Shown here piece after piece: positions 3,628-62,701 of a stretch of 64,000 bases of DNA. Location: the sequence record OP870146.1. One strand, 5' to 3'. Within the stretch, counting starts at the first letter, position 1, and each line of letters opens with the position of its first letter. The notes under the pieces are model-generated. The model had not been told where the DNA came from, made no database searches, and saw nothing but the letters and a program-made list of their open reading frames with translations. The stretch is from Escherichia phage vB_Eco_F27. Position numbers and translations under genes: made by a program.

Positions 3628-3656
3628 AAATTAAAATGAAGCTCCCGAAGGAGCTT
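3628..3656 (-). terminator. rho-independent terminator (UUCG tetraloop)
   Basis: AAGCUCC-UUCG-GGAGCUU then UCAUUUUAAUUUU on minus transcript; between HNH and glycosyltransferase genes. Confidence 0.55.
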
Positions 3657-4452
3657 AGGACATCCAACACATTTTATAACCTTTGCAGGTTCTGTTAGGA
3701 TTATTTAATGCTTTCAATATATTAGAAGACCCTATATCTAAATACTCCCTTAATTCATAAAGATAGTTAAAATCAATAGTTTCACCTGTTTTTACACTTG
3801 TGATTCTTATAGGCCTTCTTTCATATTTAGATTTATACAACTCTCTAGTCTTAGCTTTAGTTTCTTCCGACCTAGGAGTGTATGGTTTAAATCCTTTTGT
3901 TTTAAATGTTTCCATTCTTGATTTAGTTATTTTATCCTGGTGTTCTTTTGTTTTTACAGGTGCTTTTCGCCCATTCTCCCAAGATAACTTATTGGCCTGT
4001 ATTATTTTATCTATTGCTTCTTGCGTATGAGTTTTACCATAAAATGGATTTAATTCGCCTATACGTTGTGAAGCAATATGTGACATTAATTCTCTTGTTG
4101 CTTTAGTATGTTTTTTACCTTTAAATGGGTTGCCATTTTTAGCAATCCATTCTTTCATAAATCTAGAGTGCTCTTTAGAGAATTCTTGTTTAAGCCAATC
4201 ATAATCTCTAGAATTTCTAGCTCCCATGTAAAAAGCTCTAATAGCCATAAGCATAGAACGGTTCTTATGAATTTTATAAAGCAATAAATGGGCGATAAAA
4301 TGCTCTCTAGGGGTCAATTTAACTAGATTTGATTTAGCATTACTCCCGCCCATAGATTTTGGCAATATATGATGTGTCTCAGTATAATTAGGAATAATGC
4401 TGCGGTTTTTAGCCGCAGCGATAAGTTTATCATAAATTTTACGATAATTCAT
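3655..4452 (-). CDS. HNH homing endonuclease with NUMOD3-type DNA-binding repeats
   Basis: HHILPKSMGGSNAKSNLVKLTPREHFIAH HNH motif; repeated GNPFKGKKHTKATRELMS / NPFYGKTHTQEAIDKI modules; start may be 4467 or 4452. Confidence 0.75.
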   Translation of the reverse strand: MNYRKIYDKLIAAAKNRSIIPNYTETHHILPKSMGGSNAKSNLVKLTPREHFIAHLLLYKIHKNRSMLMAIRAFYMGARNSRDYDWLKQEFSKEHSRFMKEWIAKNGNPFKGKKHTKATRELMSHIASQRIGELNPFYGKTHTQEAIDKIIQANKLSWENGRKAPVKTKEHQDKITKSRMETFKTKGFKPYTPRSEETKAKTRELYKSKYERRPIRITSVKTGETIDFNYLYELREYLDIGSSNILKALNNPNRTCKGYKMCWMS

Positions 4453-6272
4453 TATCCTAGCATCCAATCTTTACGGAGTTCAGGGTCGTTACCCATGAGC
4501 ATTTCAAATAGTTCTTTCCAATTTTCAGGAAGTTTAACTACGTCGTACACAGGGTTTTGAATCATTTCTTTATATTCATCTCGCTGAAGTGAGCCCAATC
4601 CCTTGATGTATCGAATACTATGCTTAGGCAGTGTATCTTTAACTTCTTCATACTCAGCTACAGTATAAAACCATTTTTGAGTTTTGCCAATTTGTGCAAT
4701 AATTACAGGCGTTTTAACAAAGCGAATACGTCCTTGTTCAAACAATTCAGGCCAATTACTAAAGAAAGCAAGCAAAGCCGGATAGATACTTCCAAGACCG
4801 TCATGATCGGCATCGGTCATAATTGCAATATTACGATAGTTCGTATTCTCTGCCTTTTCACCAAGAATAAGACCCGTGATAGCACAGATATCGAAGAGCT
4901 CTTTGTTCTTCATCATATCAGCATATGACATACCCCAGCTATTCATCACCTTACCACGTAATGGGAATCCGCCGTGTAGTTCACGGTCACGAACATCAAT
5001 GAGATAACCAATTGCCGAATCACCTTCTGTTAAGAACAATGTCGTATCTGCATCTTTACCACATTGGTTAGCTTTAATATGCTTATGAACCTTAGCTTTA
5101 GTTGCCTTTTTAGCTGCTTTAGTTTCTGCAGCCTTTTCTGCTGCCAATTTACGAGCTAATGCGGCTTCAACAATAGGCATAATCAAGGCTTCGTTTTTAA
5201 GAAGCGCCTGAGCAATTTTCTTAGCATCTAATTGGATATGATTACGAATATCACCATACGTTGACGTTAAACGTTCTTTAGTCTGAGAATCAAAACGCAT
5301 GTTGCTCATGTCTCTAATAAACATCAACATTGTGAGGCATTCTTTAACACGAGCTTTAGTGACTTCAATACCCTTATATTTCTTTTTAATACCCGGCAAA
5401 AGATGTTCGCAGATATCGTCCATTACACATTCAACATGATGTCCACCATTTTTAGTATGGATGTTATTCACATAAGTTAAATGACGGAAGCCATCTGGTG
5501 ATGTTGTGAATGCTATAGAGACTTTATCATTTTCTTGAATGATGTTATCTTCACCAAATTGTTTAGCAAATCGTTTAAAATTACCATCAACCTTTTTACC
5601 ATTAAATGTGAACTTGATATCAGGATAAACGACTGCCAATGTTTGAAGTCGGTCTAAAGTAATATCTAAATAAATTTGAGATAAATTATGCTCTTCAAAT
5701 GAAGAGAAATCAGGAGTGAAGATTACTTTAGTGCCTTTACCTTTAGATTTCTTAGAAGACCATGATTTGTTTTCCATTCCGTTTGAACAGTTAACAGTGA
5801 TTTCGTTTTCGCCATCTGACGTGATGCCTGTAAACAACGTAGAGAAGATATTAGTTAAACTACTCCCGACGCCGTTCATACCACCAGTCTTGCGTTCAGA
5901 GTCATCACCAAAGTTACCACCAGCCTTTGGAATAGTCCAGGCTGCTACAGGCCCAGGAATTTGTTCACCTGTTTGGTCGGTAACTAAACCTTGAGGAATA
6001 CCACGTCCGTTATCTTCCACCGAAACTTGATTATTTTTAATTTGCACATCAATTTTATTTGCAAACTTAAATGATGTACGAATAGCTTCATCAACCGAGT
6101 TGTCAATAATCTCATCGATTAATTTAACCAGACCAGGAACATATTCAACTTGTTGATATTTACCAAACAAAAAACGCTCATGGGCTTCTTTAGCAGAAGA
6201 ACCAATATACATACCACTACGTTTCTTAATATGTTCTACATCTGACAATACCTTAATTTCATTTTTAATCAT
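4452..6272 (-). CDS. 39: DNA topoisomerase II large subunit (GyrB-like ATPase), unsplit
   Basis: 606 aa, MIKNEIKVLSDVEHIKKRSGMYIGSS..., GHKL ATPase and Toprim motifs; single continuous ORF covering what T4 splits into genes 39 and 60. Confidence 0.9.
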   Translation of the reverse strand: MIKNEIKVLSDVEHIKKRSGMYIGSSAKEAHERFLFGKYQQVEYVPGLVKLIDEIIDNSVDEAIRTSFKFANKIDVQIKNNQVSVEDNGRGIPQGLVTDQTGEQIPGPVAAWTIPKAGGNFGDDSERKTGGMNGVGSSLTNIFSTLFTGITSDGENEITVNCSNGMENKSWSSKKSKGKGTKVIFTPDFSSFEEHNLSQIYLDITLDRLQTLAVVYPDIKFTFNGKKVDGNFKRFAKQFGEDNIIQENDKVSIAFTTSPDGFRHLTYVNNIHTKNGGHHVECVMDDICEHLLPGIKKKYKGIEVTKARVKECLTMLMFIRDMSNMRFDSQTKERLTSTYGDIRNHIQLDAKKIAQALLKNEALIMPIVEAALARKLAAEKAAETKAAKKATKAKVHKHIKANQCGKDADTTLFLTEGDSAIGYLIDVRDRELHGGFPLRGKVMNSWGMSYADMMKNKELFDICAITGLILGEKAENTNYRNIAIMTDADHDGLGSIYPALLAFFSNWPELFEQGRIRFVKTPVIIAQIGKTQKWFYTVAEYEEVKDTLPKHSIRYIKGLGSLQRDEYKEMIQNPVYDVVKLPENWKELFEMLMGNDPELRKDWMLG

Positions 6273-7377: not shown

Positions 7378-7586
7378 TAAGTTGTACCGTTTTCAGTGAT
7401 TTCACGGAAGATACCATAGATAGGCATTTCATCACCGAGTTTTTCGTAAACGTAAACCACTTCTGTGTAGCATAAAAATTCGGTCCAGTTTTTCTGTACA
7501 ACAACTAAATCAGGATTAAACAGAACATCTTCAAACTCATCGATGTTTGAATCAGTAGTTACGTTTTTAATGATTTGACGTTTCAT
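7359..7586 (-). CDS. hypothetical protein
   Basis: ORF with start at MKRQ (7584-7586) preceded by GAGGAG SD and early promoter; upstream 15 codons of listed ORF overlap the promoter. Confidence 0.45.
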
Positions 7587-7610
7587 AATATTCTCCTCTT
7601 GTTTTGATAG

Positions 7611-7644
7611 GTCTATAGTATCATAGACCATAGTTGTTGTACAT
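7611..7644 (-). promoter_or_regulatory. early-type promoter (minus strand)
   Basis: TGTACA-spacer-TACTATAGACC then 5'UTR TATCAAAACAAGAGGAGAA shared with promoter at 55670. Confidence 0.5.
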
Positions 7645-8168: not shown

Positions 8169-8189
8169 ATTATTCTCCTCTGGTTGATA

Positions 8190-8223
8190 TGGTTATAATA
8201 CAAAAACCAGAGGAGAAGTAAAC
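8190..8223 (-). promoter_or_regulatory. early promoter GTTTAC-N17-TATTAT, spacer complementary to downstream SD
   Basis: Minus strand GTTTAC ttctcctctggtttttg TATTATAACC; spacer CTCCTCTGGTT pairs with 5'UTR AACCAGAGGAG. Confidence 0.6.
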
Positions 8224-8227
8224 AACT

Positions 8228-8647
8228 TTATGCGAAAGCAGCTGGGCTATATTTTTTAATTTGGAATTCAGGAACTACCATGAACTGTCCGGCGAAAACG
8301 ATGTTATAAAGCTTAACACCATCTTCTACCCAACGGTCGCTAATAAATCCGGCGATTTGCTTAGTTTTCCACGGTGTTCCATCAGTTGCCGCAGCAATAG
8401 TGAATTCATGGTCTTTTTCAACAGAAACTGATCTGCATAATCCCCATTTGAACGCTTTTTCTTCTGGTTCAATGAATTGGCTTGAGACATAACCAATGTT
8501 ACCATCAGCGTCACGAACTTTAACTTCGTTACGTCCAAAAACCGGATCACTCACAGAAAGAACTTCAACCAACTTCCCAGCAACTTTAGAGCGAGAAGCA
8601 ACGGATACATATACATAATCACCTGTAGAGAGATTTACAATATTCAT
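8228..8647 (-). CDS. hypothetical protein, tandem paralog family member 1
   Basis: Shares C-terminal motif GFISDRWVEDGVKLYNIVFAGQF with next two ORFs. Confidence 0.55.
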   Translation of the reverse strand: MNIVNLSTGDYVYVSVASRSKVAGKLVEVLSVSDPVFGRNEVKVRDADGNIGYVSSQFIEPEEKAFKWGLCRSVSVEKDHEFTIAAATDGTPWKTKQIAGFISDRWVEDGVKLYNIVFAGQFMVVPEFQIKKYSPAAFA

Positions 8648-15987: not shown

Positions 15988-16032
15988 AATTAACTCCTTT
16001 GTTGTTTAATTACAGGTGTATTTATAACTTAA

Positions 16033-16642: not shown

Positions 16643-16840
16643 ATGTTTAAACTTCCATTGTTAATCAACGCTATTAAAGGCAATAAAAAGAAAACTGCTA
16701 TCGCCGCAATAGTTGTAGGTGGCATTATTTCATGGAACTTTGGGATTGCACCATTGTTAGTTGCCCATGGTATTATAGTTCCTTCTGTTCCATTGGATAC
16801 TGTAGTTGATTTGGCCTTTGCTATTATAGGGCTTGTTTAA
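16643..16840 (+). CDS. small hydrophobic (membrane) protein, plus strand
   Basis: 65-aa ORF with strong SD (TAAGGAGATATTATG); predicted TM segments; convergent with primase gene. Confidence 0.45.
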   Translation: MFKLPLLINAIKGNKKKTAIAAIVVGGIISWNFGIAPLLVAHGIIVPSVPLDTVVDLAFAIIGLV

Positions 16841-17859
16841 ATCTTCGAATAACGAGATAATCTCATTTTAGCATGCAACCCACTTGAAATATTCTGTTTC
16901 ATATATTCTAAAATTTCTTGTGGTGTTGCATTTTCTTTTATTACCATATCATTCACGTCCTTTGATCTCCATGGAGCTCGATCCCAGAACATGACACGTT
17001 CGCCTGCATCAACTAATCGCTTCATGCGAGCTATAGTATCTGGATGCCTAGGTTCATTATCCATTACCCATACCCGACGTTCTTTAAATGGTACCACATC
17101 TAAATCTATCGAGCCGCCTGTAATAGCGATTGCATTGGGTATGAATAAACTATCAATAGGGCCTTCCATTACCCAGACGTCCCCTTCCTTAACACGTTCA
17201 ACACCATAAATTTTTGTTGCAGACTCAAACGCTTTAATAGTGATATATTTCTGAGGAGCATCTTTACGAAGTGCACGTCCTTGGAATGACTCAGCCTTCC
17301 CATCTTTATTAAAAATAGGAATCACTAAACGTGGTTCGGGGATCTCTTTCTTATACGTACCAGGTTGAATCTTGTTGACCAATTTAGGCCATTCTAACGT
17401 GAACCATAATCTGTTCCATGATTCTTTAGGAATACACCGAGACTTAACATATTTCACAATAGGATGCTCTTCAGGCAACTTGTCCAGACGAGAACAAGAC
17501 GGCAAAGAATTTATAGTCTTTTTCTCTGGCTCCGGCTTAGCTTCAGGAACCTTTTCAATCTTTGGTTCCATTCTAGCTTTTTCTTTACGAACTTCCATTA
17601 GATATTCGCGATAAAGCTCTTCATCATACTCTTTTAAGTATCCGGAAATTGTATTGTGGTATTGACAATTATAGCAATGTACATTACCAGGAGTACCGCC
17701 ATAATACCATCCGCGAGCTTTCATTGCATCTGTCTGAGAGTCGCCACAAACTGGACAACGAAACGTTAATTTAAATGTGCTTGAATTATTGATTTGTCTA
17801 AAACGAGGGAGGTGAGAAAACGCACGATAAGCAAATTCATTATCTATCCATTCAGCCAT
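16837..17859 (-). CDS. 61: DNA primase
   Basis: 340 aa; N-terminal zinc ribbon CPVCGDS...CYNC and Toprim region; size and synteny as T4 gp61. Confidence 0.9.
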   Translation of the reverse strand: MAEWIDNEFAYRAFSHLPRFRQINNSSTFKLTFRCPVCGDSQTDAMKARGWYYGGTPGNVHCYNCQYHNTISGYLKEYDEELYREYLMEVRKEKARMEPKIEKVPEAKPEPEKKTINSLPSCSRLDKLPEEHPIVKYVKSRCIPKESWNRLWFTLEWPKLVNKIQPGTYKKEIPEPRLVIPIFNKDGKAESFQGRALRKDAPQKYITIKAFESATKIYGVERVKEGDVWVMEGPIDSLFIPNAIAITGGSIDLDVVPFKERRVWVMDNEPRHPDTIARMKRLVDAGERVMFWDRAPWRSKDVNDMVIKENATPQEILEYMKQNISSGLHAKMRLSRYSKI

Positions 17860-18378
17860 AGTATTCTCCAGAGGCCTTAAATTAATAAGGCCATCATATC
17901 ACAACTTATTAATATTTACTTTAATTCGCTTTCTTTTCTTGGAAGGAATTTGTTCTGGACCTTTATTTACGACTGCACCTGTAGTTGTTCCTGATGCAAT
18001 AGCTTGAGGACTACCGCCTGAATCACCGGCAACCAGTACCGCCATAATACCATCCGCGAGCTTTCATTGCATCTGTCTGAGAGTCGCCACAAACTGGACA
18101 ACGAAACGTTAATTTAAATGTGCTTGAATTATTGATTTGTCTAAAACGAGGGAGGTGAGAAAACGCACGATAAGCAAATTCATTATCTATCCATTCAGCC
18201 ATAGTATTCTCCAGAGGCCTTAAATTAATAAGGCCATCATATCACAACTTATTAATATTTACTTTAATTCGCTTTCTTTTCTTGGAAGGAATTTGTTCTG
18301 GACCTTTATTTACGACTGCACCTGTAGTTGTTCCTGATGCAATAGCTTGAGGACTACCGCCTGAATCACCGGCAACCA
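17693..18378. repeat. perfect tandem direct duplication, 2 x 343 bp (17693-18035 = 18036-18378)
   Basis: Direct sequence comparison: unit spans the 5' end of gene 61, the intergenic region and the 3' end of the upstream gene. Confidence 0.9.
18023..18202 (-). pseudogene. duplicated 5' fragment of primase gene 61 (59-codon chimeric ORF)
   Basis: Second copy of primase start MAEWIDNEFAYRAF...CPVCGDS...WYYGG runs into duplication junction and stops after TGCR. Confidence 0.6.
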
Positions 18379-18709
18379 TATCCTCAAATAAAGGGAGTTC
18401 TTTAAATATTTCTTTCTGTTGTTCTTCCGTAATGTTATAGCGTGAAGCTACAGCACTCCAGGCAGACATCATTGAGGCCATTCCATTAAGACCTGGAACA
18501 GTGCTCATCATTCGCTTCATTGAACGAACTGAAGCATGAAAAGGTGTATAAGCCGCTTTCTCTTCAGGAGTAGAAGGACGTTTAAGAACACTTCCACGTT
18601 CATCGATGATTTTGGCTTCGTACGCTTTCCATTCTGTAAAAGGTTTTTGCATTAGTCGAATAAACTTATATGCATAAACTGAATCTATTGCAGTGTTAAT
18701 AATACCCAT
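18242..18709 (-). CDS. hypothetical protein
   Basis: Start taken at MGIINTAIDS (AGGAGG SD); C-terminal basic tail KKRKRIKV; 3' end lies in duplicated unit. Confidence 0.5.
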   Translation of the reverse strand: MGIINTAIDSVYAYKFIRLMQKPFTEWKAYEAKIIDERGSVLKRPSTPEEKAAYTPFHASVRSMKRMMSTVPGLNGMASMMSAWSAVASRYNITEEQQKEIFKELPLFEDMVAGDSGGSPQAIASGTTTGAVVNKGPEQIPSKKRKRIKVNINKL

Positions 18710-18728: not shown

Positions 18729-18926
18729 TTAATCAATTACAAAGATTGCTTTGTCACCATTTATATCTGTGACTTCATATGTAGTGCCTTCATACTGTGG
18801 AATATTCCAAATTACACCGTCATTAGCTTTTACGCTAATATAGCATTGGTGTTTTGAAACAACTTCATAATCTTCAAAACTTGTAAAAACACTAATTTTA
18901 GAACCAGTGCAAATTGCAGTAGTCAT
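18729..18926 (-). CDS. hypothetical protein
   Basis: 65-aa ORF. Confidence 0.4.
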   Translation of the reverse strand: MTTAICTGSKISVFTSFEDYEVVSKHQCYISVKANDGVIWNIPQYEGTTYEVTDINGDKAIFVID

Positions 18927-19936: not shown

Positions 19937-20185
19937 TTATTCTTTTTCGCGAATAATAATTACTTGTTGAGGCTGCTGAGCAGATTTCTTTTCGGCAACG
20001 ATAGACCAAATTAAAGTTCCAATCCAACCAATCATCGTCCAGTTAAAGAGTAAAGATACAAAGAAGATTGCTGTTGTGCTTTTTGTGCCACGAATAAGTG
20101 CGATTACCCAAGGCAACATGTAAATGATGATTGAACCGATACCTGCGATTAAAACTGCTACTGAACTAGCTACGAATAATTCCAT
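19937..20185 (-). CDS. small integral membrane protein
   Basis: 82 aa, two hydrophobic helices. Confidence 0.55.
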   Translation of the reverse strand: MELFVASSVAVLIAGIGSIIIYMLPWVIALIRGTKSTTAIFFVSLLFNWTMIGWIGTLIWSIVAEKKSAQQPQQVIIIREKE

Positions 20186-20212
20186 GTTAATTTCCTCTTG
20201 ATTTGTTATGTT

Positions 20213-20243
20213 TATAGTATCTTATTTTAACTTTGGTGTAAAC
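20213..20243 (-). promoter_or_regulatory. early promoter
   Basis: GTTTAC accaaagttaaaataaga TACTATAAAC upstream of membrane protein gene. Confidence 0.5.
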
Positions 20244-21395: not shown

Positions 21396-21420
21396 TTTGT
21401 TCTCCAGTAGTTGATAGGTC

Positions 21421-21450
21421 TATAATAACACAACTACTGGAGAAGTAAAC
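21421..21450 (-). promoter_or_regulatory. early promoter, spacer complementary to SD
   Basis: GTTTAC ttctccagtagttgtgt TATTATAGACC; spacer CTCCAGTAGTTG is exact complement of 5'UTR CAACTACTGGAG. Confidence 0.65.
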
Positions 21451-21825
21451 TTAAAAACGTAATTTAGATATATCCGCGTTGATTTCGTTTTGGTTTGCGT
21501 CATATGCAATTAAACGAACCGCTTTAGATGGGTCATTCAATGCATAGAAATGATGGAACATTGCTCGAACGATATCACCATTTACGAGTTCTACCTGGAT
21601 AGGAGAACCTTTTTCGAGTTGGAAATGTTCATAAGCTTTGATGGTTCGTAGATAATCAAGTTTTTGATTTCCGGCTCCAACAATTTGTACGATACGTTTG
21701 CCCGTGTTTTCCATACGAGATACAATAGTTTTAGGAGCAAGAATAACGTAGGTTGCCAGCGGAGAAACTACTTCAACAGTTGTGTTTTCGGTGATTGCAG
21801 TAAAAATTGCTTGAGACATATTCAT
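21451..21825 (-). CDS. hypothetical protein
   Basis: 124-aa ORF with own promoter. Confidence 0.5.
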   Translation of the reverse strand: MNMSQAIFTAITENTTVEVVSPLATYVILAPKTIVSRMENTGKRIVQIVGAGNQKLDYLRTIKAYEHFQLEKGSPIQVELVNGDIVRAMFHHFYALNDPSKAVRLIAYDANQNEINADISKLRF

Positions 21826-34727: not shown

Positions 34728-35291
34728 TTACCATTCCAATGCTAATTTTTTAAATTGTTTTTGTTCTTTCACATTTTTTGTAACTTCTTTGAGAAACTCA
34801 TCAGTGACCATGGCCTTCAGTTCTTTAAGGACTATTGGCAACTTGTTATTTTTTTCAAGGAGCCGCTTATACACAGTAGCATCATTCATGTTGATTGTGT
34901 AATGTTTCATCAACAGTTTGATAACTAGTAACTCTGAAGTGTCTTCGACTAGTTTAGCCCATTTAGAGAATCGTCGGCCACGTGGAATTGCCGCCATCAT
35001 ATAGTTGAAGTGCGCTTCATCACTTAATTCAGAACCGACCAAGTTCATCATGTAAACTGCGGGCATACATTCTGGAAACTGGGACAATGAGTTTTCAACC
35101 ATAAATTTTGAGTAGTCAACCTGAGCAATTGACATCGATTTCTTTTCATTAATTGCGTTAATGATTTTAAAGAATTCGTTCTCAGGTTTTTCTTTAAACA
35201 TGTCAGCACATTTTTGAATCGCATCAGCGTCGTTAGACTTCCATGCGATTTGGTGCTCGTTAAGTTGGACGTCATCATCAAATAAGTTCAT
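34728..35291 (-). CDS. 62: clamp loader small subunit
   Basis: 187 aa; [17 protein letters not shown]...; synteny with 44/45. Confidence 0.9.
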
Positions 35292-35292
35292 A

Positions 35293-36255
35293 TTATTTCC
35301 AAGTCAATTCACAAGTCAATTGAAGAAGCATATACATAACATGTAATTCAATATTACTAGCTAGTCCATGAAACTTATTATTTTCACCTGCAATTTCATA
35401 AAGCGAAATAATACTTTTACCTGGTGCGACTTTGTCATAACACTCAGAAACTAATTTATCGATGAACCATGAATAATCAGCGGCATATTTTGGAGCTAAT
35501 GCACGAAGCTGTTTGATATCTTTATTTTTCATTGCTTCTATGACATCATCTACCGTGCCACGATCATTGGTTACAATCGACAAAATACCTGCATCAAGAA
35601 CACCTTTAGACGAGTACTGGTCTAATTGACCAATTGTACGACGAAAGTCCGGGAAGTTCTTTTTAACCAGAGCTGCAACAACTTTCATGTCAGCGATTTC
35701 GATATTTTCGTTCTTACAGATTTCAACCATACGATGAATCATTTTCTTCATCATCGAGATTTTATCTTCTTCGGTTGGACGACCGAATTCGATAACTCGA
35801 CAACGACTACGTAACGGTTCGATAATTCCATCGATGTTGTTGGCAGTAATAATAATAGAACAGTTACTAGAGAATTCTTCCATGAATGTACGAAGGTGTC
35901 GTTGTGATTCAGCAAGGCCACTACGGTCAAATTCATCGATAACGATAACTTTAGGCTTGCCTTCCATTGAGACTGAACGAGCAAATGCAGTTAACGGACC
36001 GCGTACAAAATCAATTTTACAATCAGAACCGTTGACGAACATCATTTCAGCGTTGATATCGTTACATAATGCTTTTGCCACGGTTGTTTTACCGGTACCA
36101 GGAGAAGGAGAGTGTAAAATAATATGAGGAAGTTTTCCTTTAGATACTAAAGACTTGAATGTTTCATGGTCATACGCAGGCAGAATACATTCGTCAATGG
36201 AAGAAGGACGATATTTCTGTTCTAGAATGTGTTCTTTGGAATTGATAGTAATCAT
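35293..36255 (-). CDS. 44: clamp loader large subunit (AAA+)
   Basis: Walker [11 protein letters not shown], Walker [12 protein letters not shown] motif. Confidence 0.95.
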
Positions 36256-36330: not shown

Positions 36331-37017
36331 TTAGAAGTCGTGAGTAGAATCGGCTTCCATCGCAATAACATAACTTACTTGAGAGCTTTCAAACTTGGCT
36401 GCAACTTTATCACCAGCTCCCCACAACATTACTTTATAGTTACCTGGCTGGATTTTCATATTAGCCATATTGATTACGAAGTTAAAGTTGTTAGAACCAT
36501 CATAATCGGTAAGAGTCAAAGAATACTTAGGACGAGTTAGTCCGGAATCTTCAACTTTATTATAGCCATTGATAACAATTTTACCATCTTTATTTGTAAT
36601 AGCAATTGTATCAATCTGAAGTCCACGTGAAACTCGAAGCAATTGTTGAAGGTCTTCAGCTTTAATTTCAGTAATCACAGAAGCCACTGGGAATTGAATT
36701 GGCTTATTAGGAAAAACAATGGTGCTCTTGTCGGCAGCAGGCCAATAAACTGTGGAACGTGTATCTGCAATTTTAATATTGCCATCAGTATGCATTGAAA
36801 TTTCGGCATCATCAGACACTAGACTCAAAATGCTTAAGAAGCTATTCAAATCATAAAGTGCTACGTCAAAATCAATTTCATCAGAGATATTTGCTTCCGC
36901 ATAAGTGGTGCCATTAACTGCGCGAGTCATAATAAATTTACCTTGACTCAGCAGAATGCCAGAGTTAATAGAGGCAAAGTTTTTCAGAATAGCGATAGTA
37001 TCTTTAGACAGTTTCAT
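36331..37017 (-). CDS. 45: sliding clamp
   Basis: Start at MKLSKDTIAILKNFASIN; 228 aa; synteny. Confidence 0.9.
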   Translation of the reverse strand: MKLSKDTIAILKNFASINSGILLSQGKFIMTRAVNGTTYAEANISDEIDFDVALYDLNSFLSILSLVSDDAEISMHTDGNIKIADTRSTVYWPAADKSTIVFPNKPIQFPVASVITEIKAEDLQQLLRVSRGLQIDTIAITNKDGKIVINGYNKVEDSGLTRPKYSLTLTDYDGSNNFNFVINMANMKIQPGNYKVMLWGAGDKVAAKFESSQVSYVIAMEADSTHDF

Positions 37018-45411: not shown

Positions 45412-45882
45412 TTAATCATGTTTCCACACCCCATCGGTATTTGACCAAAGTCGCTGATTATCTGATCCTCGCCACAGCTTTTTAGTCGGAAGATTTTTCT
45501 CATACTTCCCATCAATAATAACATCAACATATTTAAGCATTTCTAGTTGTTTAATATCTTCAAACTTATATCCTGTCCACAACCAAATGCTTTTATTGGG
45601 ATAAAGATTTTTTACTGTTTGAACAATGCAATGAATAACATCTCGGTTATCAGGATAGAGAGGGTCACCTCCGGTTATAGTTAATCCTTCTATATAATCA
45701 TTATTCAAACATTCAATTAATTGTTCTAGTGTTTCACCAGTGAATGGAACACCATTTCTAGCATTCCATGTTGATTTATTATAACACCCTTCGCATTTAT
45801 GCAAACAACCCGTAACGAAAAGAACGACCCTGCATCCAGGGCCATTCACAAAATCGCAAGGATAAAATCTATCATAATTCAT
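45412..45882 (-). CDS. nrdG: anaerobic ribonucleotide reductase activating protein (radical SAM)
   Basis: CLHKCEGC CxxxCxxC motif near N-terminus; 156 aa. Confidence 0.93.
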   Translation of the reverse strand: MNYDRFYPCDFVNGPGCRVVLFVTGCLHKCEGCYNKSTWNARNGVPFTGETLEQLIECLNNDYIEGLTITGGDPLYPDNRDVIHCIVQTVKNLYPNKSIWLWTGYKFEDIKQLEMLKYVDVIIDGKYEKNLPTKKLWRGSDNQRLWSNTDGVWKHD

Positions 45883-47158
45883 TGGTGTTTAACCCTATGC
45901 ATGATTTCTTTATTTTTACCGAGATTAAATCCGCGTTCGTTCGGATTTCCCAAATAACCACATGTTCTTCTTATTGTGTTCATCTTTTTAGGATCAGTTT
46001 CTCCACAAATAGAACAAACAAATCCGTTTTCAGTAGGAGTCATTTCATGGGTACTTCCACATGTAAAACATTTATCTACTGGCATATTAACACCAAAATA
46101 ATCTAAATGTTGTGCAGCATAATCCCATACGGCCTCAAGGCCTTTCAAGTTATTTTTCATATCAGGAAGTTCAACATAAGAAATGTGACCACCTGTCGCA
46201 ATGAAATGATATGGCGCTTCACGAGAAATCTTTTCAAACGGAGTAATATTTTCTTCTACTGAAACATGGAAACTGTTAGTGTACCAACCTTTATCGGTAA
46301 CATCTTTTACGCTTCCATATTTTTCTGTATCAAGTTTACAGAAGCGGTAACAAAGGTTTTCAGCAGGAGTAGAATACAAACTAAAAGCAAATCCAGTTCT
46401 TTCGGACCACTGTTTAAGATGAGCATTCATTTTAGTTAAAATTTCTTGCCCAATATCACGACCGACAAGAATATTCAATTCGTGAATACCAATGTATCCT
46501 AAAGACACTGAACTTCTACCGTTTTTAAATAACTCAATTATGTCGTCATCAGGTTTAAGACGAACCCCGAATGCACCTTCTTGGTAAAGAATAGGAGCAA
46601 CAGTCGCTTTAACACCCTTTAAAGAACTAATTCTACACATCAAGGCTTCAAAACACAGATCCATTCGTTCATTAAACAATTCGATAAATTTCTGTTCATT
46701 GAACTGTGTTCCAATATAAGAATCTAATGCGATACGAGGAAGATTCAGTGTTACAACACCAAGATTATTACGTCCATCAAGAATTTCATTACCGGTTGAA
46801 TCTTTCCACACACTCAAAAAACTGCGGCAACCCATTGGAGAAACAGGAATAGATGAGCCGGTGATAGCTTTATTGTTCTTAGCTGAAATAATATCAGGAT
46901 ACATTCTTTTGCTTGCACATTCTAACGCAAGTTGTTTAATATCATAGTTCGGATCATCTTTATAAAGATTAACACCTTCTTCAACAAACATAACAAGTTT
47001 AGGAAAAATAGGAGTTATTCCATCACGACCAAGGCCTTTAATGCGGTTTTTAAGAATTGCCTTCTGAATCATTCGTTCAGTCCAGTCAGTTCCCGTACCA
47101 AATGTAATTGTTACAAAAGGCGTTTGACCGTTTGAACTGAAAAGTGTATTTACTTCAT
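45879..47158 (-). CDS. nrdD: anaerobic ribonucleoside-triphosphate reductase, exon 2
   Basis: C-terminal glycyl-radical motif RRTCGYLG and Zn site CFTCGS...CSICG; joins exon 1 to give 605 aa. Confidence 0.88.
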
Positions 47159-48202
47159 CATTATATTCAGCATGAGTCGCAAATTCATGCCCGTTTATAT
47201 GAAACAACAAAATTTGGATAGTCCATAGATATGCAACGTTCTTTTATAGTGCTAGGATGAAAATTTAGCGCTTTAGCTGCTTCTATATAAGACGTATACT
47301 TAATACCGTCAACAACCACATATTCAGGAACTTTATGAATAGTAGTCTTAATACTCAAAACAAGAGGATGAGTTTCGACTTCACTTTCAGTGCAATTTAA
47401 ATATTCCGCTGCTTTTTTAAAACTTCTAAAAGTTTTATTTTTAAGCTTTATCGATACTTGTTTTTTACTTTTTCGACTATTGATATTATTTTGCACATGT
47501 TCCTTAGATCTTCCGTTTTTAGCATAATATTCAGCTACAGAAGATTTTATATTGTTTTTATGAGATTCGGATAACACTTTACCCTTATGAGCATCTCTTA
47601 ATTTTTGAATATGTTCTTCAGTATCCGGATGCTTATAAAACTTTTTACCGCCTATGGATTTATTTAAACATTTTTTGCTATAAAAATATTTACGTATGAC
47701 CTCTTCTTCATGTTTTAATGCATCTTTATAACTATCAAATGTTTTTAAAATTATCCATTTAGTAGGTGTATCAGTTTTTAAGCGTTCATTTATATACTTA
47801 GATGACGTTGTGTAAGTTTTCCAGTTTGTGGGCTTGTTTTTAATTGTTCTAAATTTTTTATAACCGATATAAATGTCGCCATTAGAAAACTTAACTAAGT
47901 ATGTAAATGCGTCTTTATCTTTTATTTTAGTACAACGTCTTTTATCCATTTCATTGTTTCACCTCGTATTCATAAGATAATCTTATTTATACAAGATGAC
48001 TGCTGCATGTCGCCATGCAGATTAGACTATATCTTCATCTTTCGATGCCGGTCGTTTCGAATAGCATTAGCTTCTATTCTACACCGCTACATTCATCACG
48101 GTTAGTCGTTAGGCATTTAGTTCAAAAGAACATTTAGCACGGGATTGTCTACTAGAGAGGTTCCCCGTTTAGACCGGTTTTACATGAGCCTGAATTAAAT
48201 TA
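47159..48202 (-). mobile_element. group I self-splicing intron in nrdD carrying a homing-endonuclease ORF
   Basis: nrdD frame interrupted for 1044 nt; exon 1 ends in U, intron ends in G; joining restores ...AFQAYE-YEVNTLFSS...; untranslated structured segment 47950-48202 then HEG ORF. Confidence 0.8.
47185..47949 (-). CDS. GIY-YIG homing endonuclease (I-TevII-like), intron-encoded
   Basis: N-terminal TYLVKFSNGDIYIGY GIY-YIG module; basic C-terminal DNA-binding repeats; lies inside nrdD intron. Confidence 0.75.
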   Translation of the reverse strand: MDKRRCTKIKDKDAFTYLVKFSNGDIYIGYKKFRTIKNKPTNWKTYTTSSKYINERLKTDTPTKWIILKTFDSYKDALKHEEEVIRKYFYSKKCLNKSIGGKKFYKHPDTEEHIQKLRDAHKGKVLSESHKNNIKSSVAEYYAKNGRSKEHVQNNINSRKSKKQVSIKLKNKTFRSFKKAAEYLNCTESEVETHPLVLSIKTTIHKVPEYVVVDGIKYTSYIEAAKALNFHPSTIKERCISMDYPNFVVSYKRA

Positions 48203-48740
48203 ACTCATACGCCTGGAACGCGTCATAGACATCTTTTTCTGTTTTAGATTGAGCATAATTCAACGCATCAGCGATTTGCCATTTTTCTGCATCTTCAACA
48301 TGTTTAGCGTATGTGCGTTTAACATAAGGAGAAAGTACTTTATCGACATTCGCAAATGTAGTTCCGCCATACTGGTGTGAAGCAACTTGTGCAGTAATTT
48401 GTGCCATAATTGCAGTAGCAACGCCAATAGATTTAGGCGTTTCAATTTGAGCATTGCCTAATTTAAATCCATTCTCAAGCATCCCCTTTAAATCGACCAA
48501 ACAGCAATTAGTAAACGGAAGAGCAGGAGAATAATCAATATCATGCATGTGAATGATTCCGCTTTCATGCGCATTCATAATAAAAGACGGGACCATATTT
48601 TTGGCAATGTGCTTAGACACAATACCAGCCATAAGGTCCCGTTGAGTTGGAAAAACACGAGAATCTTTATTAGCATTCTCGTTCAAAAGATCTTTATTAG
48701 TTTTATGAATTAATCCTTCAATTTCTTTTTCAATTTTCAT
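48203..48740 (-). CDS. nrdD: anaerobic ribonucleoside-triphosphate reductase, exon 1
   Basis: MKIEKEIEGLIHKTNKDLLNENANKDSRVFPTQRDL...; in-frame stop 2 codons after splice point. Confidence 0.88.
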
Positions 48741-53889: not shown

Positions 53890-53915
53890 GTTTTACCTCC
53901 AGTAGTTGATAGGTC

Positions 53916-53945
53916 TATAATAACATAACCGTAGACCTTGTAAAC
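53916..53945 (-). promoter_or_regulatory. early promoter
   Basis: GTTTAC aaggtctacggttatgt TATTATAGACC; 5'UTR CAACTACTGGAGG shared with promoter at 21421. Confidence 0.55.
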
Positions 53946-53947
53946 AA

Positions 53948-54235
53948 CTAAAAGAAACTTTTTTCGGTATTTTTTCCACTGAACCAAACAGACTTCGGTA
54001 TTTTCTGTAATTTTTCAGATTTAAGTTTCTCTTCCCGTTCTTTCTTATATACACCCTTGTCGTACTGGAGCATCTCTATGGCATTCTTTTGCAAACGATC
54101 TAAGGTAATTAAGGCTTTAGTTTTTCCTTTCAAGGAAGAGTCCTGGCGAACCTCCTCGCTATATTGCATTGTAGAACTAACCATATGATGAGCATAGAGT
54201 TCGACTGCGGCTTTAATTTTTTGCATAAAATCCAT
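53948..54235 (-). CDS. hypothetical protein
   Basis: 95-aa ORF. Confidence 0.4.
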   Translation of the reverse strand: MDFMQKIKAAVELYAHHMVSSTMQYSEEVRQDSSLKGKTKALITLDRLQKNAIEMLQYDKGVYKKEREEKLKSEKLQKIPKSVWFSGKNTEKSFF

Positions 54236-54373: not shown

Positions 54374-55375
54374 TTATTTCAGTAAAGTTACTTCAGAGAT
54401 TTCCTCCCAACCATCTTTATCAGTTGAAATAAAATCTGCTACATAAAGAGCCGTACGTAATGATACATTGCGAAGACGAGATACGTTAGCCTTCATCCAG
54501 GACAATGCTTTATACGTTTCTGCATCCGTCAGACCACGTTTCTGCATCATGTCAGTAGATAATATTACATCTTCAACTCGAACCATAATCTCTTCATTAG
54601 AGTGTACTCCAAGGTCGAGATACACTGAACGAGATACTAAAGCTTGAAGGTGCGGAGCAAGTTTCGAACCGCGTTCTAACTCTTTATCGATATCAACGTT
54701 TGTAATGAAAACGATAGTACCTTCAAACTCAAATTCTTTATCAATACCCTTATCATCGAGATAAGATGACGCAGTGCTCCAACAAACTTTGCGTTTATCT
54801 CCGGTATCTAATGCTGCTTTAAGAAGGTTCAAGATGTCCATATCTGAGAATACATCAACGTCGTCGATTAAGAGAACGCTGTCTGCATCACGGTTGAGCC
54901 AAAGTTGTTCGTAAAGGCCAATACCAGAGATTTTACCATTAATGCTTTTGTATTTGATGAAACCATTATCATTAGCATTATTAAGTGCTTTATCCAGAGA
55001 ATACGTCTTACCAATACCGGCTGCACCTGAAATAATGAGTGAACGAATTTTGCCATCGATAATGCCATTCGTCATCATGTTCATTACTTTAAAGCGTTTG
55101 TTGATACGAGTTTTCATATCTTCAGTGCTTTCAACAACTGCAACTGGTGGTGTCTCAACTCCTTCCATTACGATGTCTGATTTGAAGACCCATACTCCAC
55201 GTTCAGAACCATCAATCATAACGAAAATTTTACCATCACCTAAGTGGGAACATTCAGGATTAAGCTTTGCCGGGAACCATGTCTTTGTGGCAACATAAGA
55301 ACCAGAGATTTCGTTATTACGATAGATACCTTTTTTGATTTGAACGTTGAACATTTTATTCTCCAATTTACTCAT
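54374..55375 (-). CDS. P-loop NTPase (AAA-type)
   Basis: Walker A ISGAAGIGKTYS, Walker B VLLIDDVD. Confidence 0.6.
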   Translation of the reverse strand: MSKLENKMFNVQIKKGIYRNNEISGSYVATKTWFPAKLNPECSHLGDGKIFVMIDGSERGVWVFKSDIVMEGVETPPVAVVESTEDMKTRINKRFKVMNMMTNGIIDGKIRSLIISGAAGIGKTYSLDKALNNANDNGFIKYKSINGKISGIGLYEQLWLNRDADSVLLIDDVDVFSDMDILNLLKAALDTGDKRKVCWSTASSYLDDKGIDKEFEFEGTIVFITNVDIDKELERGSKLAPHLQALVSRSVYLDLGVHSNEEIMVRVEDVILSTDMMQKRGLTDAETYKALSWMKANVSRLRNVSLRTALYVADFISTDKDGWEEISEVTLLK

Positions 55376-55392
55376 TTCGTTTCGATAGGTCT

Positions 55393-55421
55393 ATAATAAC
55401 ATGTTTAAAGCAAAAGTAAAC
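55393..55421 (-). promoter_or_regulatory. early promoter
   Basis: GTTTAC ttttgctttaaacatgt TATTATAGACC. Confidence 0.55.
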
Positions 55422-55423
55422 AA

Positions 55424-55642
55424 TTATTTGCGACGAGATTTTTTGGTAAGAGGTTGAAAGAACACTGCTTTACCTGCTGGGGATAAGGTGACTCGTAATG
55501 CATTACCGATTCCTAAGGATGCTTTAACTAAACCTTTAGCTTTCAGTTCACCAAATGCTTGACGTTGGTCTGCATCACGAGTGTTAACCATAAGACCTTT
55601 ATCACCTGCTTCACGAATCATTTCTAACATTTTGGTTTTCAT
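55424..55642 (-). CDS. hypothetical protein
   Basis: Start at MKTKMLEMIREAGDKG with GAGGAG SD. Confidence 0.45.
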   Translation of the reverse strand: MKTKMLEMIREAGDKGLMVNTRDADQRQAFGELKAKGLVKASLGIGNALRVTLSPAGKAVFFQPLTKKSRRK

Positions 55643-55669
55643 TTTGTTCTCCTCTTGTTTTGATAGGTC

Positions 55670-55699
55670 TATAATAACATATCCTAAAAGCATGTACAC
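55670..55699 (-). promoter_or_regulatory. early-type promoter
   Basis: GTGTAC-N17-TATTATAGACC; 5'UTR identical to that at 7590-7610. Confidence 0.5.
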
Positions 55700-55711
55700 T
55701 ACTTTTTAAAA

Positions 55712-55745
55712 ATATTTTAACCCCCTAAAGGGACCCGAAGGTCCC
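55712..55745 (-). terminator. terminator-like hairpin
   Basis: GGGACC-UUCG-GGUCCC then UUUAGGGGGUUAAAAUAUUUUU. Confidence 0.5.
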
Positions 55746-58063: not shown

Positions 58064-58312
58064 ATTATTCACCAATTAAAGTTTCAACAAAATTCACTAA
58101 AGCATTCTGGCAAGCATCAACCTGATTTCTATAAAAATTAAATAAGATCCATCAATTTATTAGCTTGTTCACGAGTCATTTTACCATGCTCGCTTCAATA
58201 AGATTCATTACACCATTTACCATGTTATAGGTAAACATCGGATAATTGTATTGTACTACAACATAAGCGATAAGCAAAAGTTTCATTTTGTTCTCCATTT
58301 GTTTTGGTAGGA

Positions 58313-58344
58313 CTACTATAACATAGTCCTACCAAGTTGTAAAC
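58313..58344 (-). promoter_or_regulatory. early promoter, -10 flanked by 9-bp inverted repeat
   Basis: GTTTAC aacttGGTAGGACTatgt TATAGT AGTCCTACC; perfect IR GGTAGGACT/AGTCCTACC. Confidence 0.55.
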
Positions 58345-61930: not shown

Positions 61931-62389
61931 CTAGATTTTAATCACTGCTTTAGAAGCTTTTCCTGGTAGTCGTTTACTGTTAATAATAGCCATTCTGCAT
62001 TGAAGAGTCTTCATTTTGAATGCTGGATTTTCGCGACAAACTGTAAGTCCTAACCAAAGATTTCCGTCAGTTATTTCTAAACGGCCTGGACGATACTCGA
62101 CACCTTCGACAAAATCTTCATCAACATCTGGACGGGCCGGCATTGATAAAAATTCTGCAACTTCTTTAACATGATTTTTTACTTTATGAAATAATTCAAA
62201 AACGTAATTCTCATCTATTTCTCTCTGGATGGCACGATCTAAGAGATGTTGAGAATACTTGATATGAAAGCCTGGTAGTCCAAGAGACTTTGCAGCATCT
62301 TTTATACTGGCATTTATTTTGCGGAACTCCGTTTCAAAGATTCGACGGAGTTTATTACGGCGGATAAAAACGTCTGAATTGATAGTCAT
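61931..62389 (-). CDS. regB: RegB sequence-specific endoribonuclease
   Basis: MTINSDVFIRRNKLRR...YSQHLLDRAIQREIDENYVFELFHK...CRMAIINSKRLPGKASKAVIK matches recalled T4 RegB. Confidence 0.93.
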   Translation of the reverse strand: MTINSDVFIRRNKLRRIFETEFRKINASIKDAAKSLGLPGFHIKYSQHLLDRAIQREIDENYVFELFHKVKNHVKEVAEFLSMPARPDVDEDFVEGVEYRPGRLEITDGNLWLGLTVCRENPAFKMKTLQCRMAIINSKRLPGKASKAVIKI

Positions 62390-62415
62390 TTTGATTTCTC
62401 CTCTAGTTGACAGGT

Positions 62416-62446
62416 CTATAGTAACACAACTAGAGGAGAAGTAAAC
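62416..62446 (-). promoter_or_regulatory. early promoter of regB, spacer complementary to SD
   Basis: GTTTAC ttctcctctagttgtgt TACTATAGACC; spacer CTCCTCTAGTTG is exact complement of 5'UTR CAACTAGAGGAG. Confidence 0.65.
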
Positions 62447-62449
62447 TGC

Positions 62450-62701
62450 TTATTCTTGGAATGGTGTGAGTTTTCCAGCTATCGAACAAATTTCTACCAT
62501 TGCAGGATAAAACTCTTTCACTTGTTCAAGGCGCTGGACAGCGTACCGCATTTCGCCTTCTTCAAGACAAGCCACCTGGTCATCGAGCAAATATTTGTGG
62601 TAACCAGTACAGGCTTCACTAATGATACGTTGGAATTCTTGCAAACTTTCAATTTTCACTAGTATTTTTCCTCGGGTCGAAATACTGCACGACATGCCCA
62701 C
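62450..62701 (-). CDS. hypothetical protein
   Basis: 83-aa ORF. Confidence 0.4.
   Translation of the reverse strand: MGMSCSISTRGKILVKIESLQEFQRIISEACTGYHKYLLDDQVACLEEGEMRYAVQRLEQVKEFYPAMVEICSIAGKLTPFQE

Follow-up and report, generated by a model that had tools for sequence, protein, structure and literature searches.

A perfect 343-bp tandem repeat at the 61.1/61 boundary of an RB69-like Mosigvirus record: a probable finishing artefact

Phages of the T4 type readily make tandem duplications and segmental amplifications (PMC9391042, PMC13096335, PMC8262927). Amplification of dmd-tifA in T4 overcomes ToxIN (Srikant, Guegler and Laub, 2022; PMC9391042) and is characterized by whole genes under selection, ladders of more than two copies seen by PCR, 6–10 nt of microhomology, and compensating deletions (PMC9391042). 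In T6, amplification of tRNA-Tyr/segB is driven by SegB and produces 718-bp repeats (PMC13096335). Events of the T6 segB type involve a homing-endonuclease break, UvsX/UvsY, and microhomology at the junction, are selected by defence, and collapse without selection (PMC13096335). Minihomology joining in T4 makes use of 3–13 nt (PMC8262927), and the classical duplications in this phage are those of rII and Hp17, the latter involving genes 16–18 (cited in PMC9391042).

Perfect repeats are also known to arise during genome assembly. Assemblers leave terminal repeats of 55, 77, or 99 bp on circular templates, as described for CheckV (PMC8116208), and phage contigs assembled with SPAdes carry artificial overlaps of 127 bp that need removal (PMC5923482). 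A precedent within the genus Mosigvirus is found in MK327934.1 (Escherichia phage vB_EcoM_G2469), where a repeat came to light by chance on alignment with the window analysed here; a scan of the first 50 kb of this one relative for internal tandem repeats returned one. The repeat is 55 bp long, perfect and in tandem, with 1 further matching nt (35687–35797), and is located inside the sliding-clamp gene 45, which is annotated there as two coding sequences (35210–35746 and 35730–35951). The record opens at rIIA, and the repeat junction is unique to it; the DNA analysed here has a single copy at the corresponding gene 45 site (36808–36863). Gene 45 is essential in T4, and 55 is a common assembler k-mer. 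Because a 55-nt insertion frameshifts this essential gene, and given the k-mer length, the rIIA start, and the unique junction, the repeat in MK327934.1 almost certainly stems from a contig-end overlap that was left untrimmed.

The locus described here lies in a 64,000-nt stretch of DNA, hereafter the window, which belongs to an RB69-like Mosigvirus (Straboviridae, Tevenvirinae). Approximately 150 records are related to it at 97–98.5% identity, and none is identical. Positions 17693–18035 and 18036–18378 of the window are 343 nt each and show 0 mismatches in a direct string comparison. Tandem Repeats Finder (TRF) reports a single array in the 64-kb window, at 17692–18378 (period 343, 2.0 copies, 100% matches, score 1374); both methods bear out the coordinates and the perfect identity of the 343-bp duplication given in a preliminary description of this DNA. 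The period-343 match spans 17692–18378, i.e., 687 nt or 2 × 343 + 1. No other long exact direct repeats were found in the window by a repeat search with a 14-nt seed, which returned only promoter-like families of 30–59 nt. A chance origin of an exact 343-nt repeat has a probability of approximately 4^-343 per position pair; the exact tandem repeat is genuinely in the sequence, and chance is ruled out.

The repeated unit reads on the minus strand and is composed of three parts. The first consists of 167 nt from the 5′ end of gene 61, which together with the shared base make up the 56 primase codons that had been reported. The second is a 39-nt spacer between the genes, containing a hairpin and a GGAG ribosome-binding site, and the third is 137 nt from the 3′ end of a 61.1-like gene, corresponding to 44 codons and the stop rather than the approximately 58 codons first estimated. 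The ends of the repeat fall mid-codon and mid-domain, and the number of complete genes within the unit is zero, its contents being two gene fragments and the 39-nt spacer. Copy 1 (17693–18035) adjoins the intact primase gene, and copy 2 (18036–18378) adjoins the intact 61.1-like gene, both copies being delimited by string identity and TRF.

The gene for DNA primase, gene 61, encodes 340 aa on the minus strand (16837–17859), as identified from the open reading frame (ORF) list and by its match to T4 gp61. The protein matches the T4 gp61 chains 8dvf_H and 8gao_G over its full length (E ∼1e-178), and its homologue in relatives is annotated as DNA primase; no record in public assemblies holds the window's exact primase. 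The 61.1-like gene encodes 155 aa, also on the minus strand (18242–18709, extended by the ORF lister to a TTG at 18736). No Pfam family was found for the 155-aa protein, and its name is that of gp61.1 in the RB69 annotation. That both full-length genes are intact, as had been noted before, is confirmed by the end-to-end alignment of the primase with T4 gp61 and by the presence of the 61.1 protein in many assemblies. Their integrity is no evidence of selection, since any tandem duplication that ends in adjacent genes leaves both of them intact. In the RB69 reference genome (NC_004928.1, 4400–4866) the 61.1 region has two small gaps relative to the window and is annotated as gp61.1 (279 nt) and ORF032c (192 nt), unlike the window and most relatives, in which it forms a single 155-aa ORF; the two-ORF arrangement hints that the reference genome has a frameshift here or differs through sequencing.

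The duplication also creates two small ORFs. An orphan 3′ piece of the 61.1-like gene, consisting of 44 codons and the stop (17899–18035, minus strand), sits within a 48-codon ORF (17899–18045) whose ATG start is provided by the primase fragment. The other is the 59-codon chimeric ORF announced in the preliminary description, which is indeed present (18023–18202, minus strand) in the ORF list and joins primase residues 1–56 to Gly-Cys-Arg; no public record holds this exact 59-aa protein. The hairpin of the spacer (GGCCUUA-UUAAUU-UAAGGCC) is located upstream of the gene 61 GGAG in copy 1 (17873–17892, minus strand) and precedes the 59-codon ORF in copy 2 (18216–18235, minus strand). A hairpin with this 7-bp stem is kept between 61.1 and 61 in 12 of 12 relatives. 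Its 6-nt loop in RB69 is the reverse complement of that in the window (AATTAA vs. TTAATT), resembling a small loop inversion, and the loop in NRG-P0074 carries a 2-nt insertion.

The 59-aa ORF had been interpreted as a free primase zinc-ribbon fragment, a reading that does not hold, as the ORF contains the first CxxC pair only and no helicase-interacting motif HIM1. The zinc ligands of T4 gp61 are Cys37, Cys40, Cys65, and Cys68 (PMC3012046), and alignment to T4 gp61 places them at Cys35, Cys38, Cys62, and Cys65 of the window primase; the fragment stops at residue 56, with Cys35 and Cys38 inside and Cys62 and Cys65 outside. Pfam returned no significant match for the 59-aa ORF, the zinc ribbon included. 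Three of the five DNA-stacking residues are missing, namely the counterparts of the T4 residues that stack against the template, His64, Tyr66, and His71 (PMC10359460), as is the whole of HIM1, defined as T4 Ile74–Lys97 (PMC10359460). In comparison with the zinc-binding domain of T4 gp61 and the DnaG type, the 59-aa ORF retains residues 1–56 of the window's own primase with the first CxxC knuckle, but is an incomplete domain without the second CxxC pair. Its product would thus amount to approximately half a zinc-binding domain, and folding appears unlikely.

These features bear on the proposal that the duplication is real and under selection, either for a 59-aa peptide that would act as a primosome or host-defence modulator or decoy, or for a second hairpin and ribosome-binding site that would alter gene 61 expression. 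The copied initiation region (hairpin, GGAG, and ATG) is intact and the 59-codon ORF would probably be translated from a read-through transcript, while the fragment keeps Arg49, Trp51, and Tyr53, equivalent to the T4 primer/template contacts Arg51, Trp53, and Tyr55. A product with two of four zinc ligands and no helicase-interacting motif is, however, unlikely to form a folded functional domain, neither a complete gene nor a promoter is duplicated, and the arrangement occurs in no other phage searched. Known T-even selected amplifications, by contrast, enclose whole anti-defence genes or tRNAs, usually in more than two copies (PMC9391042, PMC13096335). No sigma-70-like promoter was found on the coding strand of the unit, and no terminators inside it; the early-promoter repeat families of the window have no member there, and the opening codons of gene 61 include a TGCTT-containing stretch that, as read by eye, departs from the MotA-box consensus. 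Rfam gave no matches at gathering score between positions 16000 and 49000. A unit that brings neither a complete gene nor a sigma-70-like promoter on the coding strand, and whose new ORF encodes half a zinc ribbon, offers no visible selective benefit. Selection is a very improbable and unsupported explanation, and of the three origins first offered for the repeat (a very recent event, a selected duplication, or an assembly artefact) the artefact is the one favoured by the evidence. Were the duplication nevertheless selected, it would represent a natural case of partial-gene duplication making a small replication-associated ORF in a T4-type phage.

Comparison with related genomes, suggested from the outset as a check, sets the window apart: the approximately 150 Mosigvirus genomes among 50,697 phage records are all single-copy and lack the junction. 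In the best 40 phage records, the region measures 3051–3060 nt (mostly 3058) vs. 3401 nt in the window, which corresponds to one copy each. The public collection contains the exact 61.1 protein in 633 blocks, each time with the primase gene following it directly, and the unit is single-copy in 10 of 10 independent assemblies (NCBI, ENA, Logan) that encode an identical 61.1 protein. When reconstructed with one copy, the window is colinear with 12 relatives and shows no rearrangement, nine of the alignments being gap-free and three having gaps of 1–2 bp. With its ends mid-codon and mid-domain the repeat is placed arbitrarily, and it is unique to one record among close relatives, as expected of an assembly or finishing artefact. 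The literature search found no papers on tandem duplication in Mosigvirus.

Twenty-five positions of the unit vary among close relatives, and both window copies have the same allele at 25 of 25, with no private substitutions in either copy. It follows that the second copy is a self-copy with zero divergence. Polymorphism of this kind, together with frequent recombination among Mosigviruses, might have allowed a second copy to be acquired from a co-infecting relative by recombination, as a mosaic insertion. No relative carries a matching junction, however, and the probability of such an import is vanishingly small; an imported second copy is effectively refuted, since the two copies agree at each of the 25 polymorphic sites as well as at every other position.

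The novel junction (18024–18047) reads, in plus-strand letters and with the joint marked by a slash, ATCACCGGCAACC/AGTACCGCCAT, also given as ...CACCGGCAACC/AGTACCGCCAT..., and the corresponding wild-type boundaries are ...TTACCAGG/AGTACCGCC... and ...CGGCAACCA/TATCCTCAAA... The breakpoints have 1 nt in common, the base A, and a 1-nt overlap is the chance expectation. A 140-mer across the junction matched the 50,697 phage records only as two separate pieces, and coverage of a 60-mer centred on it never exceeded 52% in phage records. The junction is likewise absent from IMG/VR (searched with a 44-mer and a 24-mer), from JGI metagenomes, from GTDB genomes, and from complete E. coli genomes.

On every point that sequence can test, the repeat differs from the documented T-even amplifications. 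Like the dmd-tifA amplification of T4, it runs head to tail in a phage of the T-even type and is located among the genes that separate 41 from 56, a set that includes dmd and 61.4/tifA in both T4 and RB69; the gene order in RB69 and relatives is 41, ..., dmd, 61.4, imm.1, imm, sp, 61.2, ORF033, 61.1, 61, 56. In contrast to dmd-tifA, the unit contains no whole gene, is present in two copies, and has 1 nt in common at its breakpoints. With the T6 segB and the T4 rII and Hp17 duplications it has in common a tandem unit of several hundred bp whose border may cut a gene short, but no endonuclease gene or cleavage site adjoins the unit. Neither the direct repeat of approximately 3–13 nt that T-even events show at their parental breakpoints, where the window has 1 nt, nor a complete dosage-selected gene is present.

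The same observations weigh on the alternative that the duplication is real, very recent, and essentially neutral, having been formed by illegitimate, homology-independent, or 1-nt joining or by a replication template switch, and has not yet diverged or been lost. It could be confined to the lineage or to the plaque-purified stock that was sequenced. The readiness of T4-type phages to duplicate segments in tandem speaks for this alternative, as does the fact that 343 is no assembler k-mer length; the primase and 61.1 genes are intact and 343 bp of extra DNA is trivial for headful packaging, such that the phage would be viable, and sequence quality elsewhere in the window is high. Against it stands the 1 nt at the junction, compared with 6–10 nt (PMC9391042) or 3–13 nt (PMC8262927) in T4. 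Identical repeats of 343 nt also exceed the approximately 50–150 nt needed for classical homologous recombination (PMC8262927), and a neutral copy is expected to be short-lived, as T-even amplifications collapse without selection (PMC13096335). Nor did any other genome or metagenome searched show the arrangement. A recent neutral duplication can be regarded as possible but rather unlikely. If real, the repeat would be a just-born T4-type tandem duplication formed without the usual microhomology, of modest interest for how T4-type phages make raw material for new genes.

The reading best supported by these data is that the second copy is an untrimmed contig-end overlap, or the product of butt-joined contigs, and thus a finishing artefact that is probably no part of the phage genome, an assembly history deduced from the finished sequence. 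The repeat is most likely not a biological feature. Base 1 of the window aligns with base 9 of records that open at the rIIA stop codon, and a window start this near to rIIA would be a coincidence of approximately 1 in 10^4. A start only 8 nt from the conventional rIIA start (approximately 1 in 10^4) points to a genome that was rotated after assembly, and we infer that the window start is the record start. On that basis, the window presents what is expected of circular assembly followed by re-opening at a conventional start, with the old contig ends now internal. At positions 1–10, the first bases of the window fall 8 nt within the 3′ end of rIIA, which would be cut at the linearisation point if the record also starts there.

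Phages of the T4 type package their DNA by the headful and have circularly permuted genomes. Such a genome would assemble as a circle, which the assembler may write as a linear contig with the same stretch at both ends. The contig could then have been closed by plain concatenation, or two overlapping contigs butt-joined, and the record re-opened at the conventional rIIA start. Through these steps, an untrimmed overlap of 343 nt would end up inside the record as two perfect copies in tandem at an arbitrary site, in this instance the 61.1/61 boundary.

Several lines of evidence favour this origin. The repeat has two copies only, head to tail and 100% identical, with 0 mismatches, and removing one copy restores colinearity with the 12 relatives. 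The zero divergence at the 25 sites that vary among relatives, the restriction of the junction to the window across all collections searched, and a breakpoint overlap of 1 nt at chance level point in the same direction, as do the lack of any visible selective benefit, the rotated record, the same-genus precedent of MK327934.1, and the published artefact class. The length of 343 nt, on the other hand, is not an assembler k-mer (55, 77, 99, or 127), although the k-mer-length criterion defines the de Bruijn/SPAdes subtype only and does not extend to overlap-type or manual joins. At this length the repeat does not match the simplest SPAdes scenario; one has to assume an assembler of the overlap or proprietary type, or contigs joined by hand.

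Further points count against a finishing artefact. Modern assemblers are able to resolve a true 343-bp tandem duplication with paired or long reads. No gene is broken by the 343-nt repeat, so a phage carrying it could be viable. Elsewhere the window is clean: conserved genes show no frameshifts when set against MK327934.1, and the record is not a generally sloppy one. A low-quality, frameshift-ridden assembly was considered separately, as a pointer to the sequencing platform, and rejected, the conserved genes being intact in comparison with MK327934.1.

The parallel with MK327934.1 is close in several respects. Both repeats are perfect, are present in exactly two copies, occupy an arbitrary internal site in a Mosigvirus record that starts at rIIA, have a junction unique to one record, and show 1 extra matching nt at the breakpoints. 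They differ in that the window repeat is 343 nt, and not 55, 77, 99, or 127, whereas that of MK327934.1 is 55 bp, and in that the window repeat spans an intergenic region and breaks no gene, whereas that of MK327934.1 splits gene 45. Correspondingly, the artefact is provable from the sequence alone in MK327934.1 but not in the window.

Should the second copy be a finishing artefact, the deposit overstates the genome length by 343 bp and carries two small ORFs (59 and 48 codons) that are spurious and would spread through protein databases under the labels 'primase-like' and 'hypothetical'. In that event the extra bases and both ORFs ought to be taken out of the record. The main value of the observation is one of quality control, and a comparable error has been exposed in MK327934.1, whose annotation counts gene 45 as two genes.

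Other features of the window deserve mention. Just upstream of the gene for the large topoisomerase subunit lies an ORF of 270 aa (3655–4467, minus strand) that has an HNH motif as well as NUMOD3 repeats and is probably a homing endonuclease; the segment of approximately 794 bp that carries it is absent from MK327934.1. The nrdD gene for anaerobic ribonucleotide reductase (45879–48740, minus strand), contiguous in MK327934.1 (605 aa), is split in the window into ORFs of 181 and 443 aa by an insertion of approximately 1 kb, which encodes a 254-aa SegE-type GIY-YIG/NUMOD1 endonuclease (47185–47949). Rfam gave no match to a group I intron in this insertion at gathering score, and the interruption may be either an intron or a 'gene in pieces'. 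Finally, imperfect direct repeats of 45–59 nt, with a TATAAT-like box and a GTTTAC-like element, lie upstream of minus-strand genes (7581–7625, 8173–8237, 20180–20224, 21400–21469, 53895–53964, 55359–55718, 58281–58325, 62384–62460, and others). Some are followed by a ribosome-binding site and an ATG, and these families look like T4-type early promoters.
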